From Planctomycetota bacterium (GTDB taxonomy: Bacteria; Planctomycetota; UBA8742; JACQVU01), in contig JACQVU010000180.1 of NCBI GenBank assembly GCA_016209585.1, forward strand, positions 1 to 33,344: DNA of 33,344 bases, read 5' to 3'. The notes beneath the pieces were generated by a model that made no database searches, was not told where the DNA came from, and saw nothing but the letters and a program-made list of their open reading frames with translations. This document shows positions 8,223 through 27,966 of the stretch, one piece after another; within the stretch, counting starts at the first letter, position 1; every line of letters begins with the position of its first letter. Position numbers and translations under genes: made by a program.

Positions 8223-11200
8223 GTGCGCCGGATAGACAACGCCCGGAACCTTCGCGCCCGTTTGCAGGCGGCCAAGGCCCACGCGGCCGAGCGCGCCCGC
8301 GCTCTGGCCGCCTCCGAACAGGTGCGCCGCGACCTGGAGACCGAGGCCGTCCGCCTGCGCCAGGCGCTGGACGCCCAGCACGGCGTGGCGCTGGACCTCG
8401 AAGCCCGCCTCGCCGACCTCACCCGGGAACTGGCCGGCCCCGTCGGCTCCGCCTGGCGCGCCCTGCGCGCCGGGCTGTTCAACCTCCGGGGCCGCGCCGT
8501 GGGGCGCTACCCGCCGGGCGCTCTCAGCCTCTCCGGCATGAAGCGCCATCCGGCGCGCGGGAGGGGCTGGCATCACGCCGAGGGGGCCGACCCCGAGATC
8601 ATCGTCGCCGGGCCTTTCGACCCCGGATGGACCGTGCTCGGCTTCACCGTGCAGGCCGACGCCGCCTGTTCGCTGGAACTGGTGGCGTTCAGCCCCGGCC
8701 GCGAAGCCCGCTGGGACGGCGGGCGGCTCTTCCCGGGCATGACCTGGCGCCAGTACGCGCTGGAGTTGCCGGACGGCGTGACCGACCTCGGCGTCCGGTT
8801 CCGTGGTTGGCCGGGGGGCGTCTTCTTCGCCAACCACGTCGCGCGCCGCGCCACCTGGTGGACGTGCCGGCTGCTGTCCCGGTCCGACGACGGTCGCGCC
8901 CGCCGCGCGCGCGGCGACCTGCTCGACGCCGGCCTGGGGCTGTTGCTGCCCGGCGCGGCCGCGCGCTACGTGCGGGCCTTTTCCCCGCCACCGGTCCCGG
9001 ACGGTCCGGCCACGGCCGCGCGGGCGCGGTCGGCGCGACGCGCCGGCCAGAACGGCGAAGATCGGCCGGATCTCGTGGAGCCGGTCTTCCGGCCCCTGCG
9101 CGGGGTCGCCCGCCACCCGGACCGGCTGCGCTTCCCGTGGCGCGCCGACGACGCCGATCCCCAGATGGTCGCCAGCGGCCCCTTCCCGGCGGGATGGGTC
9201 CGCTTCACGTGCGAGATCGTCGCGGAAGTCCCCTCCTGGGCCGTGCTTTACGTCGACGCGGGGCCGGGGGTCTCGGAGGCGCGGACCGTGACGCTCGGCC
9301 GGGTGGACGCCGCGCCCACCACCCTGGTGCGGATCGGCTGGTTGCCGAAAGAGACGCGCGCGCTGCGCCTCGACCCGATGACCGAGCCGGGCGGCTTCGC
9401 CATCACGCGCTTCTCCGTCCGGCGCGTGGACGACGACGAAGGCCGCGCCGCGGCTCTGCGGGACATCGCGGAGATGGCGCCTTACGGCCGGTGGCGCCCG
9501 GACGCGCCGCTGGAACCCCTGCGCGACCCCAGGCTGCGGGCCAATCTCCCGCGGTACGACGAGGCGCTGTTCGCCACGCTCTCGGAGATCGAAGTCCTGC
9601 GGCGCGACCCGTACGTCATTTTCCGGCGCGAACGGGATCGGGAGATCCCCACGCGAGCGGAGGCCGCGCGGGCGGTGGCGCGGATGGCCGATCCGCCGCT
9701 GGTGTCGATCATTTTCCCGGTGTTCAACTGTCCGGCGGAGTACCTGACGGCGGCCATCAGGTCCATCCGCGGGCAACTCTATCCGAAGTGGGAACTCTGC
9801 GTGGCCGACGACGCCTCCACCGCGCCGCACGTGCGGCCGCTGCTGCTGGCGCAGGCCGCCGCGGACTCCCGCGTTCGGATCATGTGGCGCGAGCGGAACG
9901 GGAACATTTCGGCGGCGTCCAACACGGCGCTGGAAATGGCGCGCGGCGAGTTCGTGGCGCTGGTGGACAACGACGACCTCATCGAACCCGACGCCCTGCT
10001 GCTCCTCGTCCAGGCCGCGCGCGCCCGTCCCGATGTAGACATGTTGTATTCGGACGAAGACAAGGTCGATGAGGTGGGCTGGCGGTTCATGCCCTTCTTC
10101 AAGCCCGACTGGTCGCCCGACTACCTCCACTCCTGCATGTACACCTGCCACATGGCCATGTTCCGCGCCAACCTGGTCCGGGAGGTGGGTGGCTTCCGGT
10201 CGCGGTACGACGGCGCGCAAGACTGGGACCTGGCGCTGCGGGTCTCGCGCCTTGCGCGGCGCATCGCGCACGTTCCCCGCGTGCTCTACCACTGGCGCTC
10301 GCATGCCACCTCCATGGCCCGCGCCACGGAAACCAAGCCCCACGCCCATTTCGCGGCCCAGGCCGCCCTCCGCGACTGGCTCGCGGCCGGCGACGTCGCC
10401 GGCCGCGTGGAGACCGGCCCGCTGCCCTGCATGTTCCACGTGCGCTATGAGATCGTCGGCGGTCCGCTGGTGAGCATCGTGGTGCCCACCGCGGGCGCGG
10501 CGCGCGCCGTGCGCGGCAAGCAGACCGACCTGGTGGCCAACCTCATCGAGCGCGTGCTGGCCATCACCGAGTACCCGAACTACGAGATCATCGTCGTGGC
10601 CGACGGCGACCTCCGGGCCGAGACCCGCCGGCGTATCGACCACCAGCGGGTGCGCGTTCTCCCCTTCCGGGAGCCGAAGTTCAACTTCGCCCGGAAGTGC
10701 AACCTCGGCGCCCGCGCCGCCCGCGGCGACCACGTCCTCCTCCTGAACGACGACACCGAACCCATCAACGGCGACTGGCTCACGGCCCTCTTGGAGTTCT
10801 CCCAGCAGAAAGACAACGGCGCCGCCGGCGCCAAGTTGCTCTTCCCCGACGGCACCATCCAGCACGTGGGCGTGACGTTGCAGGGGCGGTTGCCGGGCCA
10901 CCCGTTCTACGGCATGCCGGGCGGTTCGTCGGGCCATTTCAACAGCATCGACGTGCCGCGGAATTACTCGGCCGTCACGGGCGCCTGTTTGATGACCAAG
11001 CGCTCGCTCTACGAGGAGATGGGCGGCCTCGACGAAGCCTTCCCCGTCAATTACAACGACGTCGACTTCTGCCTGCGCCTGCGCCGCCGCGGCCTTTCCG
11101 TGGTCTACGTGCCCTACGCGACGCTCTACCACTTCGAGGCCCAGAGCCGCCGCGACGGCTCGGTGGCGGAGTGGGAGAAACAACTTTTCCTTCAGCGTTG

Positions 11201-11279
11201 GGGCGCGGAGTACGAGATCGACCCCTTCTTCAACCCCAATCTCAACCCCCGCTACGGCGACTTCCGGATGGGAATCTGA
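8223..11279 (+). CDS. Large multidomain glycosyltransferase with two GT2 catalytic domains
   Basis: The frame is open from TTG 8142, which overlaps folE. I tentatively start at GTG 8223, and this start is uncertain. The N-terminus is an Ala/Arg/Leu heptad-like stretch, followed by two copies of a ~110-aa module. GT2 domain 1 has PLVSIIFPVFNCPAEYL...VADDAST...LVDNDDL. GT2 domain 2 has PLVSIVVPTAG...IIVVADGD...LLLNDDTEP...GAKLLFPDGTIQHVGV. Confidence 0.8.
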   Translation: MRRIDNARNLRARLQAAKAHAAERARALAASEQVRRDLETEAVRLRQALDAQHGVALDLEARLADLTRELAGPVGSAWRALRAGLFNLRGRAVGRYPPGALSLSGMKRHPARGRGWHHAEGADPEIIVAGPFDPGWTVLGFTVQADAACSLELVAFSPGREARWDGGRLFPGMTWRQYALELPDGVTDLGVRFRGWPGGVFFANHVARRATWWTCRLLSRSDDGRARRARGDLLDAGLGLLLPGAAARYVRAFSPPPVPDGPATAARARSARRAGQNGEDRPDLVEPVFRPLRGVARHPDRLRFPWRADDADPQMVASGPFPAGWVRFTCEIVAEVPSWAVLYVDAGPGVSEARTVTLGRVDAAPTTLVRIGWLPKETRALRLDPMTEPGGFAITRFSVRRVDDDEGRAAALRDIAEMAPYGRWRPDAPLEPLRDPRLRANLPRYDEALFATLSEIEVLRRDPYVIFRRERDREIPTRAEAARAVARMADPPLVSIIFPVFNCPAEYLTAAIRSIRGQLYPKWELCVADDASTAPHVRPLLLAQAAADSRVRIMWRERNGNISAASNTALEMARGEFVALVDNDDLIEPDALLLLVQAARARPDVDMLYSDEDKVDEVGWRFMPFFKPDWSPDYLHSCMYTCHMAMFRANLVREVGGFRSRYDGAQDWDLALRVSRLARRIAHVPRVLYHWRSHATSMARATETKPHAHFAAQAALRDWLAAGDVAGRVETGPLPCMFHVRYEIVGGPLVSIVVPTAGAARAVRGKQTDLVANLIERVLAITEYPNYEIIVVADGDLRAETRRRIDHQRVRVLPFREPKFNFARKCNLGARAARGDHVLLLNDDTEPINGDWLTALLEFSQQKDNGAAGAKLLFPDGTIQHVGVTLQGRLPGHPFYGMPGGSSGHFNSIDVPRNYSAVTGACLMTKRSLYEEMGGLDEAFPVNYNDVDFCLRLRRRGLSVVYVPYATLYHFEAQSRRDGSVAEWEKQLFLQRWGAEYEIDPFFNPNLNPRYGDFRMGI

Positions 11280-11328
11280 TACAGAACATGGAGAATACGG
11301 GCGATATTTGAGGCACAGCGGAAGGAAC

Positions 11329-12585
11329 ATGATCCGACTGATTGAAGCGCTCAATTTCCGCTGCCTGCGCTATGTGAGCCGGCCGTTGGATCGGTTTCAC
11401 ATGCTCGTCGGACCGAACGCGAGCGGCAAGACGACCTTTCTCGACGTGATCGCGTTCCTCGGCGACATGGTTTCCGAGGGCCTGGACTACGCCTTGTCCC
11501 AGCGGGCCGAGTCGTTCGGAGATCTGCTTTTCGGGCGACAGGGGGACTGGTTCGAACTTGCCGTCGAAGTCGCGATCCCCAGCGATCGAGGACGTGAACT
11601 TCCTCCCGAGAAATTCGATACGATTCGGTACGAAGTTCGCATCGGCGTTACAGATCGCATCACCGAACCGGGCATCCTTCTGGAGAAGGTATGGTTGAAG
11701 CGTTGGAAACCGCCCGCGCCGCGTCCGCGCGCGATGTTCCCGCTGGAGCCTGACGCCCCCGCCTCTCTTGTTTCTCCAAAGGGTTCCGGGCGCCAGACGG
11801 TCCTTACAAAGAGCGGGGAGGGGGGCGACAATTTCTATAGCGAGGTCCGGATGGCCAAGCAAAAGGGGTGGTTCCCTTCGATCCGGCTTGGTCCGCGGAA
11901 ATCGGCGCTTGCCACCTTGCCCGACGATGAATCGAAGTTCCCCGTTTCCACATGGTTGAAGGGCTTTCTCACCACGGGCATTCAGCGGTGTGTGCTGAAC
12001 AGTCTGCTCATTCGGCGCGCGAGCCTTCCGGAAAAGAAAAGGGGGTTCAAGCCGGACGGCTCGAACCTTCCGTGGGTGATCGCGGAACTGGCGAAGCGCC
12101 GACCGGACAAATACGCCCAGTGGATTTCCCATTTGCGCACGGCGCTTCCAGACATCGAGACAATCAAGACGGTGGAACAGGAAGACGACAAGCGCCGCCA
12201 TCTGGTCGTTCGGTACAATGGGGGGCTGGAAGTGCCCTCCTGGATGGCTTCGGACGGCACGTTGCGCATGCTCGCGTTGACCCTTCCCGCGTATGTGCCC
12301 GAGTTCCGGGGTGTTTATCTGGTCGAAGAGCCGGAAAACGGCCTGCATCCGCTGGCGGTGGAGGTGGTTTCCCAGTCGCTTTCGTCGGTGTATGGAGCGC
12401 AGGTGTTGGTGGCGTCGCACTCCCCCGTCATTCTCAGTCTCATGACGGCCAAACAGGTGCTCTGCTTCCAGAAGGGCGCGTCCGGCGCGACCGACATCGT
12501 GGCCGGCACCGAACATCCCGCGCTCCGTGACTGGAAAGCGGATCCCAATCTCGGCACGATGTTCGCTTCCGGAGTCCTCGGATGA
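11329..12585 (+). CDS. ABC/SMC-like AAA ATPase (AAA_21/AAA_15 type), candidate sensor/motor of a two-gene module
   Basis: ATG 11329 is preceded by GGAAGGA. Walker A is LVGPNASGKTT. The ABC-signature-like motif is MASDGTLRML, Walker B/D-loop is VYLVEEPENGLHP, and the H-loop is LVASHSPV. About 270 residues are inserted between Walker A and the signature motif, as in AriA, AbiLi and PtuA-type ATPases. G+C is lower than in the flanks. Confidence 0.85.
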   Translation: MIRLIEALNFRCLRYVSRPLDRFHMLVGPNASGKTTFLDVIAFLGDMVSEGLDYALSQRAESFGDLLFGRQGDWFELAVEVAIPSDRGRELPPEKFDTIRYEVRIGVTDRITEPGILLEKVWLKRWKPPAPRPRAMFPLEPDAPASLVSPKGSGRQTVLTKSGEGGDNFYSEVRMAKQKGWFPSIRLGPRKSALATLPDDESKFPVSTWLKGFLTTGIQRCVLNSLLIRRASLPEKKRGFKPDGSNLPWVIAELAKRRPDKYAQWISHLRTALPDIETIKTVEQEDDKRRHLVVRYNGGLEVPSWMASDGTLRMLALTLPAYVPEFRGVYLVEEPENGLHPLAVEVVSQSLSSVYGAQVLVASHSPVILSLMTAKQVLCFQKGASGATDIVAGTEHPALRDWKADPNLGTMFASGVLG

Positions 12586-13217
12586 ACGGCACGACGCCAG
12601 TCCGGGATCTGGTCGTGCTCACGGCGTGCAAGAATGCGCAGTTCGCGATTCGGGGTCTGCTCATGCGGCGCCATTCGCCGGGCTTGCGGGCTATCGGGGA
12701 ACCGGGTTTTCTCGTTCACCCGGAACGCGATCCCGGCGTTCTCCGAAGCGGCCATGATCTCCTTCGTTCTTCCGCGAAGCAGTTCCACCATGCGCTCGTT
12801 GTCATGGACCGCGAGGGAAGCGGTGAAATGAAACTTGGCCGCGAAGAAATGGAGCAAGAAATCGAGAAACGCCTGGAAGCCAACGGGTGGGGAAATCGTG
12901 CCGCCGCCGTGGTGATCCAGCCCGAACTCGAATCGTGGGTCTGGAGCGACTCTCCTCACGTTCCAGAGATTCTCGGATGGGCGGCTCGACGCCCGCCGCT
13001 CGCAACCTGGCTTCGAGAAAACTCATGGATTGCGCCGCCATCTTCAAAGCCTGCTCGCCCAAAAGAGGCCTTGGAAAACGTCCTCATGACTACTGGAACG
13101 TCTCGTTCTTCCAGTATTTACGAATCGCTCGCGAAAAACGTGAGTCTCTCTCGCTGCGTCGATCCGGCGTTCAAGAAACTGAAGGAGACTCTCCAGCGGT
13201 GGTTTCCTGGGCAGTAG
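12582..13217 (+). CDS. Uncharacterised 211-aa protein coupled to the ATPase; possible Toprim-like effector (DUF4435/RloB/DUF4276 architectural class)
   Basis: The ATG overlaps the ATPase stop (ATGA, 12582..12585). The alternating strand/helix pattern carries acidic motifs: DLVVLTACKNAQFAIRGLL, HPERDPG, HALVVMDREGSG, VVIQPELESWVW. The C-terminus reads SLSRCVDPAFKKLKETLQRWF. I recognise no family with confidence. G+C is low, like its partner. Confidence 0.7.
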   Translation: MNGTTPVRDLVVLTACKNAQFAIRGLLMRRHSPGLRAIGEPGFLVHPERDPGVLRSGHDLLRSSAKQFHHALVVMDREGSGEMKLGREEMEQEIEKRLEANGWGNRAAAVVIQPELESWVWSDSPHVPEILGWAARRPPLATWLRENSWIAPPSSKPARPKEALENVLMTTGTSRSSSIYESLAKNVSLSRCVDPAFKKLKETLQRWFPGQ

Positions 13218-13479
13218 CATAGTGGCAAAGACGTGGCGGCCGGACGCGCCAGCCGAAAACGCCGGTCGAATTGGCGGGCACGGACTGCGGGACGGTGAAG
13301 CCGTGGCTGTGGCGGATGAAGACCCTGCTGCGCCAGAGCCGGACTGAAGGCGGCGTTCGAGAATTGCGAATGGCACACCGTGTTTCCGAACCCCAGCCTG
13401 CGAGACCTCAAGCGGCCCATCCTGCCGGCGGTCGCGTGAGGCGTCCAGGAGCGATCTGCACCCATGACCGACGCCCGGC

Positions 13480-13508
13480 CTGACACGCGCGGCTGAATCG
13501 GGTACACT
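13480..13508 (+). promoter_or_regulatory. Candidate sigma70-type promoter for the STAS gene
   Basis: CTGACA (13480..13485), a 17-nt spacer, then TACACT (13503..13508), lying 35 nt upstream of ATG 13543. This is a pattern match only. Confidence 0.3.
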
Positions 13509-13542
13509 CCCTGGGAGCAGGAAGACCAACCCCGCGCGCCCG

Positions 13543-13908
13543 ATGGCCAAGTTCCAGTTTTCCACCGAGTCCAACGGCGACGTCACCGTCGTCTACCTCC
13601 AGTCGCCGCGGCTGGACGAAAGCCACGCCGGCGAACTGGCCTATGAGTTGAACAAGACCGCCGAGAAGGAGTTTCAACCGAAGATCCTGATCAACATGAA
13701 GGACGTGACCTACATCTCATCGGCCATCATCGGGAAACTGGCGGCGTTCCAGAAGAAGATGAACCAGGACAAGGGCACGCTGAAGTTCTGCTCCGTCTCG
13801 TCGGCGGTGATGAAGGTGTTCCAGGTGACCCGCATGGACAAGATCTTCACGATCTACGGCGACGCCGTCGGCGCCATGAACGCCTTCCGCGCGGGGAAGG
13901 GCAAGTAG
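13543..13908 (+). CDS. STAS-domain protein (anti-sigma-factor antagonist, SpoIIAA/RsbV-like)
   Basis: 121 aa. The sequence GDVTVVYLQSPRLDESHAGELAYEL...ILINMKDVTYISSAIIGKLAAF....KGTLKFCSVSSAVMKVFQVTRMDKIF.IY has the classic STAS topology, with the phosphorylatable Ser context (ISSAIIG). Confidence 0.85.
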   Translation: MAKFQFSTESNGDVTVVYLQSPRLDESHAGELAYELNKTAEKEFQPKILINMKDVTYISSAIIGKLAAFQKKMNQDKGTLKFCSVSSAVMKVFQVTRMDKIFTIYGDAVGAMNAFRAGKGK

Positions 13909-13911
13909 GGG

Positions 13912-13927
13912 CGGGGGTCCCCCCCCG
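13912..13927 (+). terminator. GC hairpin just after the STAS stop (possible terminator or attenuator; no U-tract)
   Basis: CGGGGG-tccc-CCCCCG forms a 6-bp stem with a 4-nt loop, 4 nt after TAG 13906..13908. No T-run follows, so any intrinsic-terminator function is doubtful. Confidence 0.2.
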
Positions 13928-13959
13928 GTAGAACGCGGCGCCGACGCCGCTTCCTCACC

Positions 13960-15039
13960 ATGTTGCACGCCGTGGTCATGGCCGGTGGCGCCGGCACCCG
14001 TTTCTGGCCGCAGAGCCGCGTGGCGCGGCCGAAGCAGTTCCTGCCCTTCGGCGCCGACGGCCGCACGCTGCTGGCCGCCACCGTGGAGCGCCTCTTGGGG
14101 GCGGCGCCGCTGGAGCGCATCCTGGTGGTCACGGGCGCGGCCCACGCCGGCCTCGCCCGCGCGCAACTGCCTGATCTTCCGGCGGACAATCTGATCGTGG
14201 AGCCGGCCGGCCGCGACACCGCCCCCTGCGTCGGGCTGGCCGCGACCATCATCGCCCGGCGCGACCCGGACGGCGTGGTGGCCGTCTTCCCCGCCGACCA
14301 CTTCATCGAGCCGGCGGAAGACTTCGTCCGCGCCGTGCTCTTCGCGGCCGACGTCGCCCACCAGAGCGGCGGCATCGTCACCTTCGGCGTCCGCCCCGCC
14401 GGCCCGGCCACGGGGTACGGCTACATCCATGCCGGAAAGACGCTGGACGAGCGCGGCGGAGAGATCCTGCGCGAGGTTCTGGGCTTCGAGGAGAAACCCG
14501 ACCTGGAGTCCGCCCGGCGCTACGTCGAATCCGGCGAGTACTACTGGAACAGCGGCATGTTCGTCTTCACGGCGCGCGCCATGCTCACGGCCCTCGCGGA
14601 ACATGTGCCCGACATCGCCGCGCACCTCGCCGCCGTGGGGCGCGCGCTGGGAACGCCCGCCGAAGCCGAGACGCTGGAGCGTGAGTTCCTCGCCTGCCGG
14701 CGCATCTCCCTGGACTACGCCGTGATGGAGCACGCCCGCGACATTCGCGCCATCGTCTCCCGCTTCCGCTGGGACGACGTCGGCGCGTGGGACGCCCTCG
14801 CCCGCTTCCAGGCTCCCGACGCCGAAGGCAACGTGGCCGCCGGCGAACGGGTGCTGCACCGCGCCCGCGGCTGCACCGTGGTCTCCGAGGGCGGCCTCGT
14901 CGCCCTCGTGGGCGTCGAAAACCTCGTCGTCGTCCGCACCCCCGACGCCACGCTGGTCGTCCACCGCGACGCCGTTCAGGACACGAAGAAGGTGGTCGAC
15001 GCCCTCAAGGCCGACCCGCGCTTCGCCAAGTACCTGTAA
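13960..15039 (+). CDS. manC: Mannose-1-phosphate guanylyltransferase (GDP-mannose pyrophosphorylase)
   Basis: MLHAVVMAGGAGTRFWPQSRVARPKQFL (the GGxGTRxWPxSR signature), EPAGRDTAPC, FPADHFI, TFGVRP..PATGYGYI, FEEKPD and YYWNSGMFVF. Confidence 0.9.
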   Translation: MLHAVVMAGGAGTRFWPQSRVARPKQFLPFGADGRTLLAATVERLLGAAPLERILVVTGAAHAGLARAQLPDLPADNLIVEPAGRDTAPCVGLAATIIARRDPDGVVAVFPADHFIEPAEDFVRAVLFAADVAHQSGGIVTFGVRPAGPATGYGYIHAGKTLDERGGEILREVLGFEEKPDLESARRYVESGEYYWNSGMFVFTARAMLTALAEHVPDIAAHLAAVGRALGTPAEAETLEREFLACRRISLDYAVMEHARDIRAIVSRFRWDDVGAWDALARFQAPDAEGNVAAGERVLHRARGCTVVSEGGLVALVGVENLVVVRTPDATLVVHRDAVQDTKKVVDALKADPRFAKYL

Positions 15040-18586: not shown

Positions 18587-20557
18587 CTACGGACCGGCGG
18601 GGGCGGGCGACGAGCGCACGGTCAGCACGGGGATGCTGGTGCGGTGGCGAAGTTCGGAAGCGGTGGACCCGTGGAAGAGATCGCCCAGCAACCGGTGGCC
18701 GTGGCTGCCGGTGACGAGGAGGTCGACGTTTTCTTCCTCGGCCAGGCGGGCGATTTCGTCTTCCGGCTCGCCGGCGCCGATGCGGGCGCGGCACGCCAGC
18801 CCCATGGCGCGCAGGGCGGCGGCGGCGCGTTCGAGGTAGTCGGCGTCAGCCTTGGCCTCTTCGTCGTCGACGGTTGCGCCGATGAAGCGGGCGGTGGCGC
18901 TCTCCACGACGTGGATGAGGATCACTTCGGCCCCCGAGGCGCGGACCAGCGGGAGAACGTCGGCGAGGATGCGCCGGTCGTGCTCCGTGGCTTCCAGCGC
19001 GATGCCCACGCGGCGGTATTGCTGAGAGAGCGTGGTTTCCCACGCCGGCAGCACGGGCGTTGGAACGGCGGCGCGGCCCCGGCGGGCGCGACGGCGGCGC
19101 CAGCCGCGCCAGAACGGCTCCAGAACCATCCAGGCGAGCAGCGGGGCGATGAGGAGCGCGGCCGGCAGGAGCAGATAGCGCACCGCCCAGAGGTCCGAGT
19201 CCAGGCCGTCTTTGATGGTCTGGATGACCAGCATCACGTTGAGCGTGGCGATGACGCCGGCCGCAGCCCAGGCCAGGAGCCGCGCCCAGAGAGGCGTCGC
19301 GAACCGGCCCATCTTGCGGCGGTCGCTGGTGAAGTGGATGAGGGGGACGACGGCGAACGTCAGTTGCAGCGACAGGATGACCTGGGAGAGCACCAGCAGC
19401 GGATCGACGCCGGAATCGCCTTTCCAGAGGATGACGATCACCGCCGGCGTGATCGCCAGGGCGCGGGTGACCATCCGGCGCAACCAGGGGCGCAAGCGGA
19501 TGTGAACGAAGCCCTCCATGACAATCTGGCCGGCCAGTGTGCCGGTGATGGTCGACGATTGCCCGGCGGCCAGAAGGGCGACGGCGAAGGCGATGGGGGC
19601 CAGGGCGGACCCCAGGAGGGGGTGCAGGAGAGAGTGGGCGTCCTCCAGGCTGGCGACCTCAGCGTGGCCGCTCTGGTGGAAGGCCGCGGCCGCCAGGATG
19701 AGGATGGCGGCGTTGACGAAGAAGGCGGCGTTGAGCGCGACGACGGAGTCGATCAGGTTGAAGCGCGCCGCCTGGCGCAGCCCGGCCTCGCCGCGGGCCA
19801 CGGCGCGCGATTGGACCAGGGCCGAGTGCAGGTAGAGGTTGTGGGGCATCACCGTGGCGCCGATGATGCCGATGGCGATGTAGAGCGCCTCGCCCGACAA
19901 CGGGCTGGGGATGAAGCCGGCCGCGATGCCGGCCGGTTCGGGCTGGGAGAGGAATATCTCCACCGCGAAACATGCGCCGATGGTGGCCACCAGCGTGAGG
20001 ATCAGCGCCTCCATTTTGCGAATGCCGTAGGACTGCAGGAGCAGGAGCAGCATCACGTCGAAGGCCGTGATCAGCACGCCCCAGAGGATGGGAATTCCGA
20101 ACAGCAGGTGAAGGCCGATGGCCGAGCCGAGCACCTCGGCCAGGTCGCAGGCCGCGATGGCGATCTCGCAGAGGACCCACTGCACCCAGACCACCGGCCG
20201 CGGATAGTGATCGCGGCAGGCCTGCGCCAAGTCCCGCCCCGTGACCAGGCCGAGACGCGCCGACAGCGTCTGCAGCAGAATGGCCATGAGGTTCGAGAGC
20301 AGAATCACCCAGATCAGCCGGTACCCGTATCCGGCGCCGGCGGCCAGGTCGGTGGCCCAGTTGCCGGGGTCCATGTAGCCGACCGAGACCATGAAGGCCG
20401 GCCCGCTGAAGGTGAGCAGCCGGCGCAGGAAGGTGCTGGCCGGCGCCACCGGCACGCTGGCGTGCACTTCCGGCAGCGAGACCATGTCCGCGGGCGTGGT
20501 GGGCACGCTGGCGCCGGCGGCGCCACGGGCGGAATCGTCGGGGGAACTCTCGGCCAT
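18587..20557 (-). CDS. mntH: Nramp-family divalent metal (Mn2+/Fe2+) transporter fused to a C-terminal universal stress protein (USP) domain
   Basis: Nramp signatures are GPAFMVSVGYMDPGNWATD, LLQ.LSARLG.VTG.DLA and GATVMPHNLYLHS, with about 11 TM helices. The last ~140 aa (nt 18614..19018), RVGIALEATEHDRRILADV...VILIHVVES...VDLLVTGSHGHRLLGDLFHGSTASELRHRTSIPVLTV, form a USP fold with the G-x2-G-x9-GS motif. Confidence 0.9.
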   Translation of the reverse strand: MAESSPDDSARGAAGASVPTTPADMVSLPEVHASVPVAPASTFLRRLLTFSGPAFMVSVGYMDPGNWATDLAAGAGYGYRLIWVILLSNLMAILLQTLSARLGLVTGRDLAQACRDHYPRPVVWVQWVLCEIAIAACDLAEVLGSAIGLHLLFGIPILWGVLITAFDVMLLLLLQSYGIRKMEALILTLVATIGACFAVEIFLSQPEPAGIAAGFIPSPLSGEALYIAIGIIGATVMPHNLYLHSALVQSRAVARGEAGLRQAARFNLIDSVVALNAAFFVNAAILILAAAAFHQSGHAEVASLEDAHSLLHPLLGSALAPIAFAVALLAAGQSSTITGTLAGQIVMEGFVHIRLRPWLRRMVTRALAITPAVIVILWKGDSGVDPLLVLSQVILSLQLTFAVVPLIHFTSDRRKMGRFATPLWARLLAWAAAGVIATLNVMLVIQTIKDGLDSDLWAVRYLLLPAALLIAPLLAWMVLEPFWRGWRRRRARRGRAAVPTPVLPAWETTLSQQYRRVGIALEATEHDRRILADVLPLVRASGAEVILIHVVESATARFIGATVDDEEAKADADYLERAAAALRAMGLACRARIGAGEPEDEIARLAEEENVDLLVTGSHGHRLLGDLFHGSTASELRHRTSIPVLTVRSSPAPAGP

Positions 20558-24757: not shown

Positions 24758-25429
24758 CTACTGGCCGCCGGAAAGCAGGAAGTCGCGCAGGCGGTCGCCG
24801 TCGGGGACGGTGATGGCGTTGCTTTCCACGCGGATGAGGCCGTTGTCGGCCAGGTCGCGCTGGGCACGGGAAAAAGTCTCGGGCGCCATGTTCAGCCGCG
24901 CGGCGATCTCCTTGCGCGCCTCGGTCAGCGCCACCAGGCCGGCGTTCTTACCGTCCGCCGCCAGCCGGCCGAGCAGGAAGTTGGCCAGGCGGGCGCGCGC
25001 GCCAAGGAAGGCCTCAGCCTCGAGTTGCGCCAGGAGCCAGTGCATACGACGCGCCAGCGACTCGATGACCCGCAGCGCGAAGTCGGCGTTCTCGCGCAAC
25101 AGGCGAATGAACCCCTGGGCGTCGACGCACACCAGCGAAGAGTCTTCCATCGCCTGCGCGAAAGCCGGGTAGCGGGCGACGCCGAAAATGGCGGCCTCGG
25201 CGAACGACTGGCCGGCGCGGAAGACGTTCAACACCCGCTCGCGGCCGTCGGGGGCGATCTTGTACACCTTCACCGCGCCGCTCTTCACCAGGTAGAAGCC
25301 CCTGGCCGCGTCGCCGTCGCGGAACACCATCTCGCCGGCCGGCGCGCGCGTTTCGCGGGCGCAGCGGGCCAGGCCCTCGCGGTCGCACGCCGTGATCTGC
25401 TGGAACATCGGGAACGACGAAAGGTCCAT
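24758..25429 (-). CDS. Crp/Fnr-family transcriptional regulator
   Basis: The cNMP-binding beta-roll is [51 protein letters not shown]. The C-terminal HTH is [32 protein letters not shown]. There is no N-terminal Cys cluster, so it is not a classical O2-sensing Fnr. Confidence 0.88.
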
Positions 25430-25677
25430 GCGGATCTCGGCTGGTGACGGTCGCCTTGCGCCGGTCGTCAGCCCGCGCCCGTGGCCGGGGAAGCCCCAGT
25501 GTACCCGCGCCGCGCGTGAGGCGCATTCGCGGTTTCGCGGCGCCCGCCGGGCGCAGCCGAATGTTCTACCGATGGAGCCTCAAAGGAGTATACTGCGCCA
25601 CTTCGCGGGCGAGCGCGGCGCCACGAGAACCGGAGCCGTCGGCCCCCGAGTCGCCCGCAAACCCCAGCCCCGCCCGT

Positions 25678-26160
25678 ATGCGCGCGCCTTACTCCCAAGC
25701 CCTCGGTATGGTTGAGACCCTGGGCCGCGTCGGCTCCACCGAGGCGGCTGACGCCATGACCAAGGCCGCCCAGGTGACCCTCATCGGCCGCGAGGAGGTC
25801 GGCGGCGGCTACGTCACCGTCCTGGTCCGCGGCGACGTCGGCGCCGTGCGCGCCGCCGTCGAGGCTGGGGAGCGCGCGGCCAAGGCCGTGGGCAAGGTGG
25901 TCAGCGTCCACGTCATCCCCAAGCCGCACGAACAGACCCACACCATTCTGCCGCTGCTCTCCCCCGCCGCCGACGGGCCGCCGCTCTCGTTCGCGCAACG
26001 GCTGCTGGCCGCCTACGGGCAACCCGACGCGGACTTTCCGGCGAAGGGCGCCGCGCCGCGCCCGGCGGGTGAACGCGCGGGCCGGCCGGCCGCGGTTTCG
26101 GTGGAGGGCGAGAAGCGGGCGAAATCGACCCCCCGTGGCCGCCGCACCAGCCGGAAGTGA
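25678..26160 (+). CDS. Bacterial microcompartment shell protein, BMC-H (Pfam BMC domain) with a ~70-aa basic/Pro-Ala-rich C-terminal tail
   Basis: Starts at internal ATG 25678 of ORF 25444..26160. [79 protein letters not shown] aligns nearly position-for-position with PduA/EutM/CcmK ([48 protein letters not shown]...A...G.V...HVIPRPH). The tail ends in [15 protein letters not shown]. Confidence 0.87.
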
Positions 26161-26181
26161 ACCGCGGGGCGGGCGGCCAGG

Positions 26182-27966
26182 TCACATCGCCAGAATGTCG
26201 AAGGCGCGGCCGGCGTCGACGCACTCGCGGGCCGCAAGGAACTGGTCCATGGTCATCGCGCTGAAGTTCAGCGGCCGGCCGTCCTGGTCGTGCAGCACCT
26301 TGGTGGCGTCGTCCAACTCGGTGACGTAATAGCGCAGGCGGTCGTCGATCACCGGCTCCCCGCTTCCCGCGTCGAACGAAACGCCGAAATTCTCGCTCAA
26401 CAGGCGTCGCACGGTGGGGTGCTTGAACATCTCGGTGCCGGGGTAGGCCGTGGCCGTGAACATCCGGCGGTTGACGGAGTTCATGGCCACCTCCCACTCG
26501 CGCGTGCCCGGGGTGACGCCGTCGGTGTAGAGGTCCTGCTGCCACTTGATGAAGGCCACCGAGGTTTGCAGTTGCCGAAGCGTCTCGCCGGGGTAGCCCA
26601 TGATCCAGGTGCAGTTGCCGTGCACCCCGTGCTCCTTGCACTTCTTCACCCCTTCCACCATCGTGAGCGGGAAGTCGTAGCCGCCCAGGCGCGTGGTTCC
26701 GTTGGTGAGAATGAAGCCCCCCTTGCCCATCTCTTCGAGCACGGCGGCGTCAGCCGACTCGGCGCCGAAGCCGATGTAGACGCAGCCGGCCTCGGCCATC
26801 AGTTTCACGCGCTGGATGTCGTTGTGCCGCATCCGGCCGGTGCGGGCGTCGGGGCGGATGTCGGCCGCCTCGTCGAGCCGGCCGTGCGTGCCCCAGCGGA
26901 GGCCGGTCTCGCGGATCAGGGGGCCGAGCGCAGCCGGCAACGCCGCGATGCGCCGCGGGATGACCATGAAGTTGTCGTCGGTGATGCCCACGAAGTCCAC
27001 GCCGTACTTCTCGTGGTAGAACCGCATCTCGGCCGCCATGGCCTCGGGCGACCGCACCCCGTAGTCGCGCTCCCCCTGCTGGCCGCGATAGCAGAACTTG
27101 CACGCGAAGGGGCACCCGCGCGACGACACCGTGGACAGCGAGCGATCCATGGTGAACGGCGCCGCCGAGGAGTTGGCCGAGTTTCCCCCCCAAATGGCGT
27201 TCCGAATGTAGACTTCAAGCACCGGGAAGCCGTCGACGTCGCGCTCCATGAGGTCGAGCGCCGGCAGCGGCAGAATGTCAAGGTTCCGCGGCCGGCCCCC
27301 GTCATAGAGAAAGCGCGGCTGGCCCTCCCATTCCCCGAGATAGTAGGGCGCCAGCAGCCCGGCCGCCCGCGCCGACGCCAGCCCGCGGCGGCGGACGTGG
27401 AGCGCGTCGAGCGCGATCTTGAGAATGACGTCGTCCCCCTCGCTGTGCGCCACGCCGTTCAACTCCGGAATCCAGGAGAAGAGGCCCGTCTTGAACTCCG
27501 TCGCCAGGCCGTTGCCGGAGACAATCATCGTCTCCGGCAAAAGCCGGCGCACGATGGCCGCGGCGCGCTCCTGCCACTTGAGCGTGGTGATCAAGCCGCT
27601 GAACGCCACCAGGTCAGGCTCGCCGTGGCGGGCGAAGTGGCGCTCGAAGAGCCCGGCGGCTTCCTCGTCCAGCAGGTGCCGGCCGTTCTTCAGGCCGCGC
27701 CGGCGCGCCAGGTCGTCCTGGATGCGATAGGCGTTGAGGTCCACGATGCTCGCGTCGGCGCCATACTCCCGCACCCGCGCCGCCAGCAACCCCGGCCCCA
27801 GCGGAACGTTGTTGGGCAGAGCCGTCTCCCGCAGCGGCATGTTCACGAAGCAGACCCGCGCGCCCTTCAGGTCGCCCGGGCGGATGGCGGCCGCCACCTC
27901 GGCCGGGTGGACGTAGGTCCGCGCGGGGGCGCTCAACACGGGCGGAGAAGCGAGAAGCGTGGGCAT
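26182..27966 (-). CDS. B12-binding-domain radical SAM enzyme (class B), substrate unknown
   Basis: The N-terminal cobalamin-binding fold is ARVCFVNMP...PLGPGLLAARVREYGADASIVDLN...DLVAFSG. The radical SAM cluster motif is SSRGCPFACKFCY (CxxxCxxC). It is followed by VGITDDNF and IGFGAESADAAVLEEMGKG. Total length is 594 aa. Confidence 0.88.
   Translation of the reverse strand: MPTLLASPPVLSAPARTYVHPAEVAAAIRPGDLKGARVCFVNMPLRETALPNNVPLGPGLLAARVREYGADASIVDLNAYRIQDDLARRRGLKNGRHLLDEEAAGLFERHFARHGEPDLVAFSGLITTLKWQERAAAIVRRLLPETMIVSGNGLATEFKTGLFSWIPELNGVAHSEGDDVILKIALDALHVRRRGLASARAAGLLAPYYLGEWEGQPRFLYDGGRPRNLDILPLPALDLMERDVDGFPVLEVYIRNAIWGGNSANSSAAPFTMDRSLSTVSSRGCPFACKFCYRGQQGERDYGVRSPEAMAAEMRFYHEKYGVDFVGITDDNFMVIPRRIAALPAALGPLIRETGLRWGTHGRLDEAADIRPDARTGRMRHNDIQRVKLMAEAGCVYIGFGAESADAAVLEEMGKGGFILTNGTTRLGGYDFPLTMVEGVKKCKEHGVHGNCTWIMGYPGETLRQLQTSVAFIKWQQDLYTDGVTPGTREWEVAMNSVNRRMFTATAYPGTEMFKHPTVRRLLSENFGVSFDAGSGEPVIDDRLRYYVTELDDATKVLHDQDGRPLNFSAMTMDQFLAARECVDAGRAFDILAM

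Follow-up and report, generated by a model that had tools for sequence, protein, structure and literature searches.

We analysed the 33,344-bp contig JACQVU010000180.1 (~70% GC; called the window below, by which we mean this whole stretch of DNA) around a gene that encodes a hexamer-type shell protein of bacterial microcompartments (BMCs), a so-called BMC-H protein, and that stands between the genes for a Crp/Fnr-family regulator and a radical S-adenosylmethionine (rSAM) enzyme. A first-pass annotation of this DNA had described the shell gene as a lone one with a basic tail, and had proposed three options for it: a satellite shell protein that serves a distant locus, a shell protein re-purposed as a scaffold, or a part of an undescribed small module. 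The layout it reported was correct. The BMC-H gene lies exactly at 25678..26160 and has the VGGGY pore motif and a Pfam BMC match (5e-26), the regulator diverges from it across 248 bp (by its coordinates and its cNMP_binding and HTH_Crp_2 domains), and the 594-aa rSAM enzyme converges on it across 21 bp (by its coordinates, a Radical_SAM match of 1e-18, and the motif CPFACKFC). The features of the locus, in order along the forward strand, are these:

24758..25429, minus strand: Crp/Fnr-family regulator gene, 223 aa, with cNMP_binding (PF00027, 8e-24) and HTH_Crp_2 (PF13545, 3e-13)
25430..25677, no strand: divergent intergenic region between the Crp/Fnr and BMC-H genes, 248 bp
25678..26160, plus strand: BMC-H shell protein gene, 160 aa (stop included in the coordinates), a single PF00936 domain followed by an orphan tail
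25678..25950, plus strand: BMC domain proper, residues 1-91, in which direct reading finds the edge lysine K29 kept, KAAQ, PKPH, and the pore motif VGGGY
25951..26043, plus strand: proximal tail, residues ~92-122, holding the sole predicted tail helix (105-113)
26044..26157, plus strand: distal tail, residues ~123-160, rich in Ala, Pro, Arg, and Gly, with a basic terminal cluster
26161..26181, no strand: convergent gap between the BMC-H and rSAM genes, 21 bp
26182..27966, minus strand: rSAM enzyme gene, 594 aa, Radical_SAM 1e-18, with CPFACKFC at C285/C289/C292

The BMC domain is canonical and fully intact. Pfam PF00936 matched residues 8-83 in one stretch (90.9 bits against a cut-off of 24.5 bits), with the pore motif at residues 41-45, and the best sequence matches in the PDB were PduA (116 bits), a Clostridium EutM-type protein (112 bits), and Haliangium ochraceum HO-5815 (107 bits), in alignments that covered ~88 residues of the chains and were co-linear with PduA and HO-5815. 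An AlphaFold model of the monomer, built on an 85-sequence alignment, gave the BMC fold with pLDDT values of 90-98 over residues ~10-90; its elements (strand 8-15, helix 17-30, strand 34-41, strand 45-52, helix 54-71, and strand 73-80) correspond to the non-permuted alpha/beta BMC fold. The domain had a codon-usage score of 0.70 bits/codon, and other genes of the contig scored 0.39-0.77. Since the GC content at third codon positions (GC3 = 0.90) and the codon usage of the BMC-H gene were in line with the rest of the contig, we regard the gene as resident and under selection, not as a recent insertion.

When we looked for the nearest single-domain BMC-H homologues we found proteins 72-75% identical over the domain, and all five of those with readable genomic context lay in complete BMC loci. 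Three of these loci were SPU-type, with phosphotransacylase (PTAC), a EutN triplet, aldehyde dehydrogenase, an RnfC-like protein, BMC-T, TIM, RpiB, and DeoC, and the remaining two, which had EutN genes, a CsoS1D-like BMC-T, and an MreB-like ATPase, were not of this type. Since its nearest relatives are encoded in complete loci, the protein is by descent an ordinary facet-type hexamer, and is exceptional in standing alone. On the contig the isolation is plain. Elsewhere it carries housekeeping and envelope genes (GC3-based gene calling, with Pfam run on all likely genes), including those for TrmD, ribosomal protein L19, endonuclease IV, PanC, GTP cyclohydrolase I, glycosyltransferases, and a hybrid histidine kinase, as well as an Nramp-Usp protein, a GlcD-like oxidase, RNase D, and an HD-GYP-like protein. 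Among all these likely genes Pfam identified no second BMC domain, EutN/BMC-P, BMC-T, aldehyde dehydrogenase, PTAC, DeoC, or RpiB, and a six-frame tblastn search of the contig with 18 proteins from two real BMC loci (the queries included PTAC, aldehyde dehydrogenase, RnfC-like, TIM, RpiB, DeoC, and aldolase II proteins) had the one BMC-H gene as its sole match. The claim that no other BMC genes occur within at least 8 kb on either side thus holds as to their absence and slightly overstates the distance, as the contig ends 7.2 kb to the right of the gene.

Axen et al. (2014) recognized satellite loci by an insufficient contiguous set of shell genes (only PF00936 or PF03319), the lack of BMC enzymes nearby, and a main locus elsewhere, and 149 of their 580 prospective loci were satellite loci, with 77 of 329 BMC-containing genomes concerned (PMC4207490). 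The window has a single BMC-H gene with no EutN/BMC-P gene in the contig, and no genes for BMC-associated enzymes nearby, by Pfam on the neighbours and by tblastn. Our favoured reading, to which we give a probability of roughly 60%, is that this is an ordinary satellite (or FRAG-type) shell gene whose neighbours are unrelated to it. Of the three options in the first-pass annotation this is the one that fits best, given what a single contig can display and given nearest homologues that are hexamers of main loci, with the main locus of this genome itself being presumed.

The organism appears very poorly sampled, and its closest database relatives are distant: the best match to the endonuclease IV was 57% identical and that to the rSAM enzyme 66%, and the assembly index has no entry for the BMC-H protein. 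The contig holding the former match had no synteny with ours, and at the closest rSAM locus no protein of our contig other than the rSAM enzyme itself was matched.

Two short motifs at the edge of the hexamer bear on its assembly. The 'basal' type of BMC-H is marked by two inter-hexamer motifs, one being KAAN and the other (P/A)RPH (PMC8217296), and here both are altered, to KAAQ (25762-25773) and PKPH (within IPKPH, 25918-25929), each by a conservative change. Among the homologues we retrieved, the PRPH arginine was an arginine in 250 of 263 domain instances, and a lysine in this protein alone; the KAAN asparagine was a glutamine in 21 of 253 instances. In Salmonella PduA the change R79K was the sole substitution of R79 that still gave tubes and microcompartments (PMC8155464). 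Since PduA R79K still assembles, PKPH is compatible with tiling, and this protein presents a natural counterpart of that engineered variant. On these comparisons we predict that the protein is assembly-competent, that is, able to form hexamers and to tile.

Beyond the domain the protein runs on for ~68 extra residues, with 77 aa after PKPH as against a median of 18 aa after PRPH in 237 single-domain homologues. Direct reading bore out the Pro/Ala-rich extension of ~70 aa with a basic Lys/Arg end that had been reported: over the whole tail the net charge is +7 and the isoelectric point 11.2, and over its last 22 residues the net charge is +6. Calling such an extension atypical for BMC-H proteins was an overstatement, because C-terminal extensions of up to 200 residues have been documented for them (PMC8217296). 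The tail is an orphan and is mostly disordered. It had no Pfam match at an E-value of 10 or less, and pattern scans with the back-translated 77 aa found no relative in one genome each of 185,579 species or in the JGI metagenome contigs. There was no relative of the tail among the best matches of a search of 5.8 billion proteins, when the full protein was run exhaustively with HMMER against 1.84 billion cluster representatives only the domain was matched, and a local phmmer search of the tail against 268 retrieved BMC proteins had a best E-value of 0.32. The AlphaFold check, made on the monomer, which upheld the BMC fold, did not yield an ordered tail: pLDDT was 57-72 over the tail and 57-71 in its distal part, which has no secondary structure, and the only tail helix was the nine-residue 105-113 (FAQRLLAAY; pLDDT ~72), the remainder being coil. 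EutK and PduK are BMC-H proteins with functional C-terminal domains; here no folded or recognizable domain of that kind follows the BMC domain.

Several candidate origins and relatives of the tail were tried and rejected. By eye and in MAFFT alignments the tail seemed to resemble the homologue P0441 ('SFARQL...PD..LPPK') and the 'ELRRYARTLPDFPLKG' motif of the homologues P0391 and P0089, which carry a recurrent 'ELRxxARxL..GRxIS' C-terminal motif; neither likeness was significant, since the best phmmer E-value of 0.32 leaves such visual resemblances unsupported. A frameshift hiding a second helix was discarded, as neither of the alternative frames of the tail yields a recognizable product, and so was an antisense remnant of the cytidylyltransferase gene that usually lies behind the rSAM gene (see below), of which tblastn found no trace. 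As an observation in its own right, P0391 and P0089 belong with P0458, P0495, and P0419 to a BMC-H subclass that has a long acidic/Pro-rich linker and then a conserved C-terminal motif of ~35 aa ('..V.ELR..AR.L.....GR.IS.A.+..L'). This motif had no Pfam match above noise and looks like a helix-extended-helix (Rho-N/SAP-like) element. The gene for P0089 (locus L086:185-697), the sole subclass case with context, is followed by one for an aldehyde dehydrogenase.

Codon usage divides the tail in two, and it is on this evidence that we weighed the possibility that the extension is unselected, its ancestral stop codon having been lost and former 3' non-coding DNA being read through in an otherwise ordinary short, or decaying, BMC-H gene. 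The final 38 codons, the Lys/Arg cluster among them, scored 0.01 bits/codon, a neutral value though still that of the best frame, and flanking intergenic DNA (the 248-bp region) scored a non-coding -0.50. From the base composition we calculate that a stretch of 70 random codons at 70% GC has no stop in ~26% of cases, and the great length of the tail beside those of its homologues speaks for such an origin. The orphan state of the tail agrees with it too, as does the finding that many long-tailed BMC-H representatives in the databases look like frameshift products. The proximal tail tells otherwise: its 31 codons scored 0.57 bits/codon, which is gene-like and inside the range of the real genes given above, and the reading frame was the best of six throughout. 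Since its codon usage is of the coding type, the proximal tail is not mere junk; the full intactness of the BMC domain is a further point against this reading. We consider an unselected extension somewhat unlikely; as it concerns the tail only, it is compatible with a satellite shell gene. The organism has a comparable extension in its ribosomal protein L19 (23144-23749, plus strand, 201 aa), in which an 89-aa low-complexity tail, first Lys/Glu-rich and then Ala/Pro-rich and weakly coding (0.31 bits/codon), extends beyond the Pfam domain, whose last residue is 112. Given the likeness of the two tails, low-complexity C-terminal extensions seem to be a habit of this organism.

The regulator has both parts expected of the Crp/Fnr family, an effector domain of the cNMP-binding type and a C-terminal Crp-type helix-turn-helix. 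No equivalog NCBIfam assignment could be made (matches were sub-threshold only, e.g., FtrB with 87 bits against a cut-off of 211 bits), direct reading showed no FNR-type N-terminal Cys cluster, and the metagenome contigs held no close relatives of the protein. A Crp-like gene was found near none of nine BMC-H homologue loci, and near only one orthologous rSAM locus (L011), where the protein was 26% identical. In the 248-bp region between the regulator and the shell gene we found no sigma-70-like promoter, terminator, or Rfam match in scans that are weak for an unfamiliar lineage, and no CRP- or FNR-type palindrome with three or fewer mismatches, which is likewise a weak test in such a lineage. 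A lower-GC patch near 25555-25600 is a possible promoter.

This arrangement, together with the charge of the tail, raises the possibility that the BMC-H protein works alone in a cell with no complete microcompartment, forming sheets, tubes, or a scaffold whose basic tail binds nucleic acid, a membrane, or a partner protein, possibly under Crp/Fnr control. Such a role would fit the lack of any other BMC gene in 33 kb, the strongly basic tail and its terminal cluster, helix 105-113, which looks amphipathic, the unusual edge motifs, and the divergent regulator gene; it would also fit the position of the termini, since in BMC-H proteins both lie on the concave face (PMC5534457). Against it, the tail has no relatives and so gives no sign of a conserved function; the basic end is neutral in codon usage, matches nothing in Pfam or PADLOC, and has no predicted fold. 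No Crp/FNR-type box was found in the intergenic region, all close homologues are ordinary shell proteins of main loci, and lone shell genes are common in genomes that have a main locus (PMC4207490). We therefore judge a stand-alone protein unlikely. The more specific proposal, in which the PKPH edge and a cytosol-facing basic tail have turned the protein into a self-assembling, nucleic-acid- or membrane-binding scaffold under Crp/Fnr control, again in a cell with no complete microcompartment, we hold to be highly improbable.

Another proposal of the first-pass annotation was an undescribed small module, which we read as Crp, BMC-H, and rSAM acting together, with the enzyme scaffolded or enclosed by the shell protein. 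Physical proximity (gaps of 248 and 21 bp) is what speaks for it. Orthologues of the enzyme that are 53-66% identical occur in Planctomycetota, Polyangiaceae, Acidobacteriota, Nitrospirota, Roseibium, Opitutia, and Patescibacteria/Saccharibacteria, the nearest being in metagenome-assembled genomes (MAGs) of Planctomycetota and Polyangiaceae. We took ±10 kb around 78 homologues in species genomes and around three metagenome places, 81 loci in total, of which 32 were orthologous (45-66% identity, from at least eight phyla). A tblastn search with the BMC-H protein found a BMC domain in none of the 81, and the supposed adjacency is thus not conserved on the rSAM side, where the module falls to the refuting condition that the first-pass annotation had itself set. 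Clustering of neighbours in the 32 orthologous loci instead revealed another set of partners: a CTP_transf_3 cytidylyltransferase in 24 loci (in 19 of them beginning just where the rSAM gene stops), NeuB in 15, and a HAD phosphatase in 10. These neighbours, the cytidylyltransferase and NeuB in particular, point, for the rSAM family, to a nonulosonic-acid (sialic-acid-like) sugar pathway and not to a microcompartment. In our contig the rSAM gene is without its usual partners, tblastn having found no trace of the cytidylyltransferase; the closest orthologue, in a Planctomycetota MAG, likewise lacks them and stands alone.

The protein itself offers no sign of being BMC cargo, having neither a terminal extension nor a conserved linkage to a shell gene. 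Encapsulation-peptide-like segments had been suggested as something to look for at its termini; in an alignment with nine orthologues, however, there was no additional N- or C-terminal segment, the C-terminus was conserved to the last residue, and the termini matched those of orthologues from genomes with no BMC gene nearby, so the enzyme has no candidate for an encapsulation peptide. Since the rSAM and BMC-H genes are convergent they can share no transcript; a BMC-H protein without BMC-P cannot close a shell (PMC8217296); and Crp-like genes are nearly absent from the rSAM and BMC-H loci described above. The module is largely refuted already and we find it hardly credible, and because the comparative context refutes it, the tight spacing of the shell gene to the rSAM and regulator genes is no evidence for it.

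The labelling of the enzyme as a class B, B12-dependent rSAM protein was upheld for its rSAM core, by CPFACKFC and the Radical_SAM match, and less so for its B12-binding domain, which scored 16.3 bits, below the Pfam cut-off of 32.1, though several orthologues have a precomputed PF02310 match. Its best partial NCBIfam matches were to B12-rSAM methyltransferase families, all far below their cut-offs and with no equivalog among them. The family is widely conserved and uncharacterised. We also observed that it spans very distant phyla (Patescibacteria/Saccharibacteria and Roseibium, for instance; loci L002 and L004-L037), which, taken with its usual partners, suggests a horizontally mobile step that modifies a nonulosonic acid.

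Returning to the satellite (or FRAG-type) shell gene, the picture that we propose is as follows. The gene would encode a resident, intact, and assembly-competent 'basal'-type hexamer apart from the other microcompartment genes of the genome, and its product would supply the facet tiles of a shell for which the pentamers, trimers, and enzymes are encoded elsewhere in the genome. Separate transcription, presumably from its own promoter, would let the cell vary the composition of that shell. The tail would leave the hexamer on its concave face, where both termini lie; Sutter et al. in 2017 reportedly found this face to be cytosol-facing in the solved H. ochraceum shell. We take the extension to be lineage-specific and probably of recent origin; its basic distal part may have arisen when translation read through into what had been 3' non-coding DNA. 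The Crp/Fnr and rSAM genes would be neighbours by chance.

Several points weigh against this picture. A main BMC locus elsewhere is what defines a satellite, and here its existence is inferred from a 33-kb contig that has no close relatives. That both basal edge motifs deviate, the lysine variant being the one instance in 263, could mean that tiling is changed or lost. The coding-type codon usage of the proximal tail sits poorly with an extension that is no more than a by-product. Finally, a regulatory link between the Crp/Fnr protein and the shell gene was looked for from the BMC-H and rSAM sides, and may exist all the same.

If the satellite or FRAG-type reading is true, the locus adds one more such shell gene, from an unsampled high-GC lineage, and the understanding of microcompartments is unchanged; catalogues of shell-protein diversity would gain from it a naturally occurring PKPH/KAAQ edge variant whose exterior tail is disordered. 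A stand-alone scaffold, unlikely as it is, would if true matter more widely, as a case from nature of a shell protein that does its work outside any organelle.

Other observations on the contig touch neither the shell gene nor its neighbours. A two-gene island at 11308-13217 (plus strand) consists of a gene for an AAA_21/AAA_15 ATPase (425 aa) and an overlapping gene for a 211-aa partner. It lies inside a lower-GC stretch at ~11000-14000 (GC 0.61-0.62 compared with ~0.70) and matches the PADLOC candidate defence systems HEC-01A/B and mad3/mad4 (6e-41 and 1e-7), and is probably a horizontally acquired anti-phage pair. A role in defence was also considered for the BMC-H and rSAM proteins and was rejected, neither having a meaningful PADLOC match. 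At 18587-20557 (minus strand) a 656-aa protein fuses an Nramp-family metal transporter to a C-terminal universal stress protein (Usp) domain. The contig had no tRNA or Rfam matches.

Compared with known systems, the protein resembles EutK, PduK, and the 'ELRxxARxL..GRxIS' subclass in that behind its BMC-H domain comes a long C-terminal extension, expected on the concave face, and differs from them in that its tail has no folded domain, Pfam match, or significant similarity (best phmmer E-value 0.32). With HO-5815 (PDB 5DJB/5V74) and the basal hexamers PduA and EutM it has in common the single PF00936 fold, the GGGY-type pore, and the edge lysine, and it departs from them in having KAAQ for KAAN or KAAK, PKPH for PRPH, and ~68 extra C-terminal residues. 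FRAG BMCs have shell genes in up to six places of a genome and include those of Planctomycetes and candidate phyla (PMC8217296). Our locus is like theirs in being a single shell gene far from known enzymes, as scattered FRAG genes are, and in its lineage, which is deep-branching, has 70% GC, and carries an rSAM enzyme closest to those of Planctomycetota and Polyangiaceae MAGs; the hallmark of FRAG BMCs is a BMC-P triplet along with other fragments, whereas here one contig with a single BMC-H gene was read. Sutter et al. (2021) described a satellite as a distal locus with shell proteins only or with enzymes as well, and suggested that it tunes shell permeability (PMC8217296). Relative to the distal CcmK3/CcmK4 satellites of beta-cyanobacteria, our locus is known from one contig alone, its main locus is presumed, and its protein is closest to the hexamers of heterotrophic metabolosomes (SPU-type, PduA, EutM, and HO) and not to carboxysomal CcmK. 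In its arrangement it is nonetheless like these loci, with shell gene(s) only, far from enzymes and BMC-P and with a promoter region of their own, for which a role in tuning the composition or permeability of the shell has been proposed (PMC8217296; PMC4207490).

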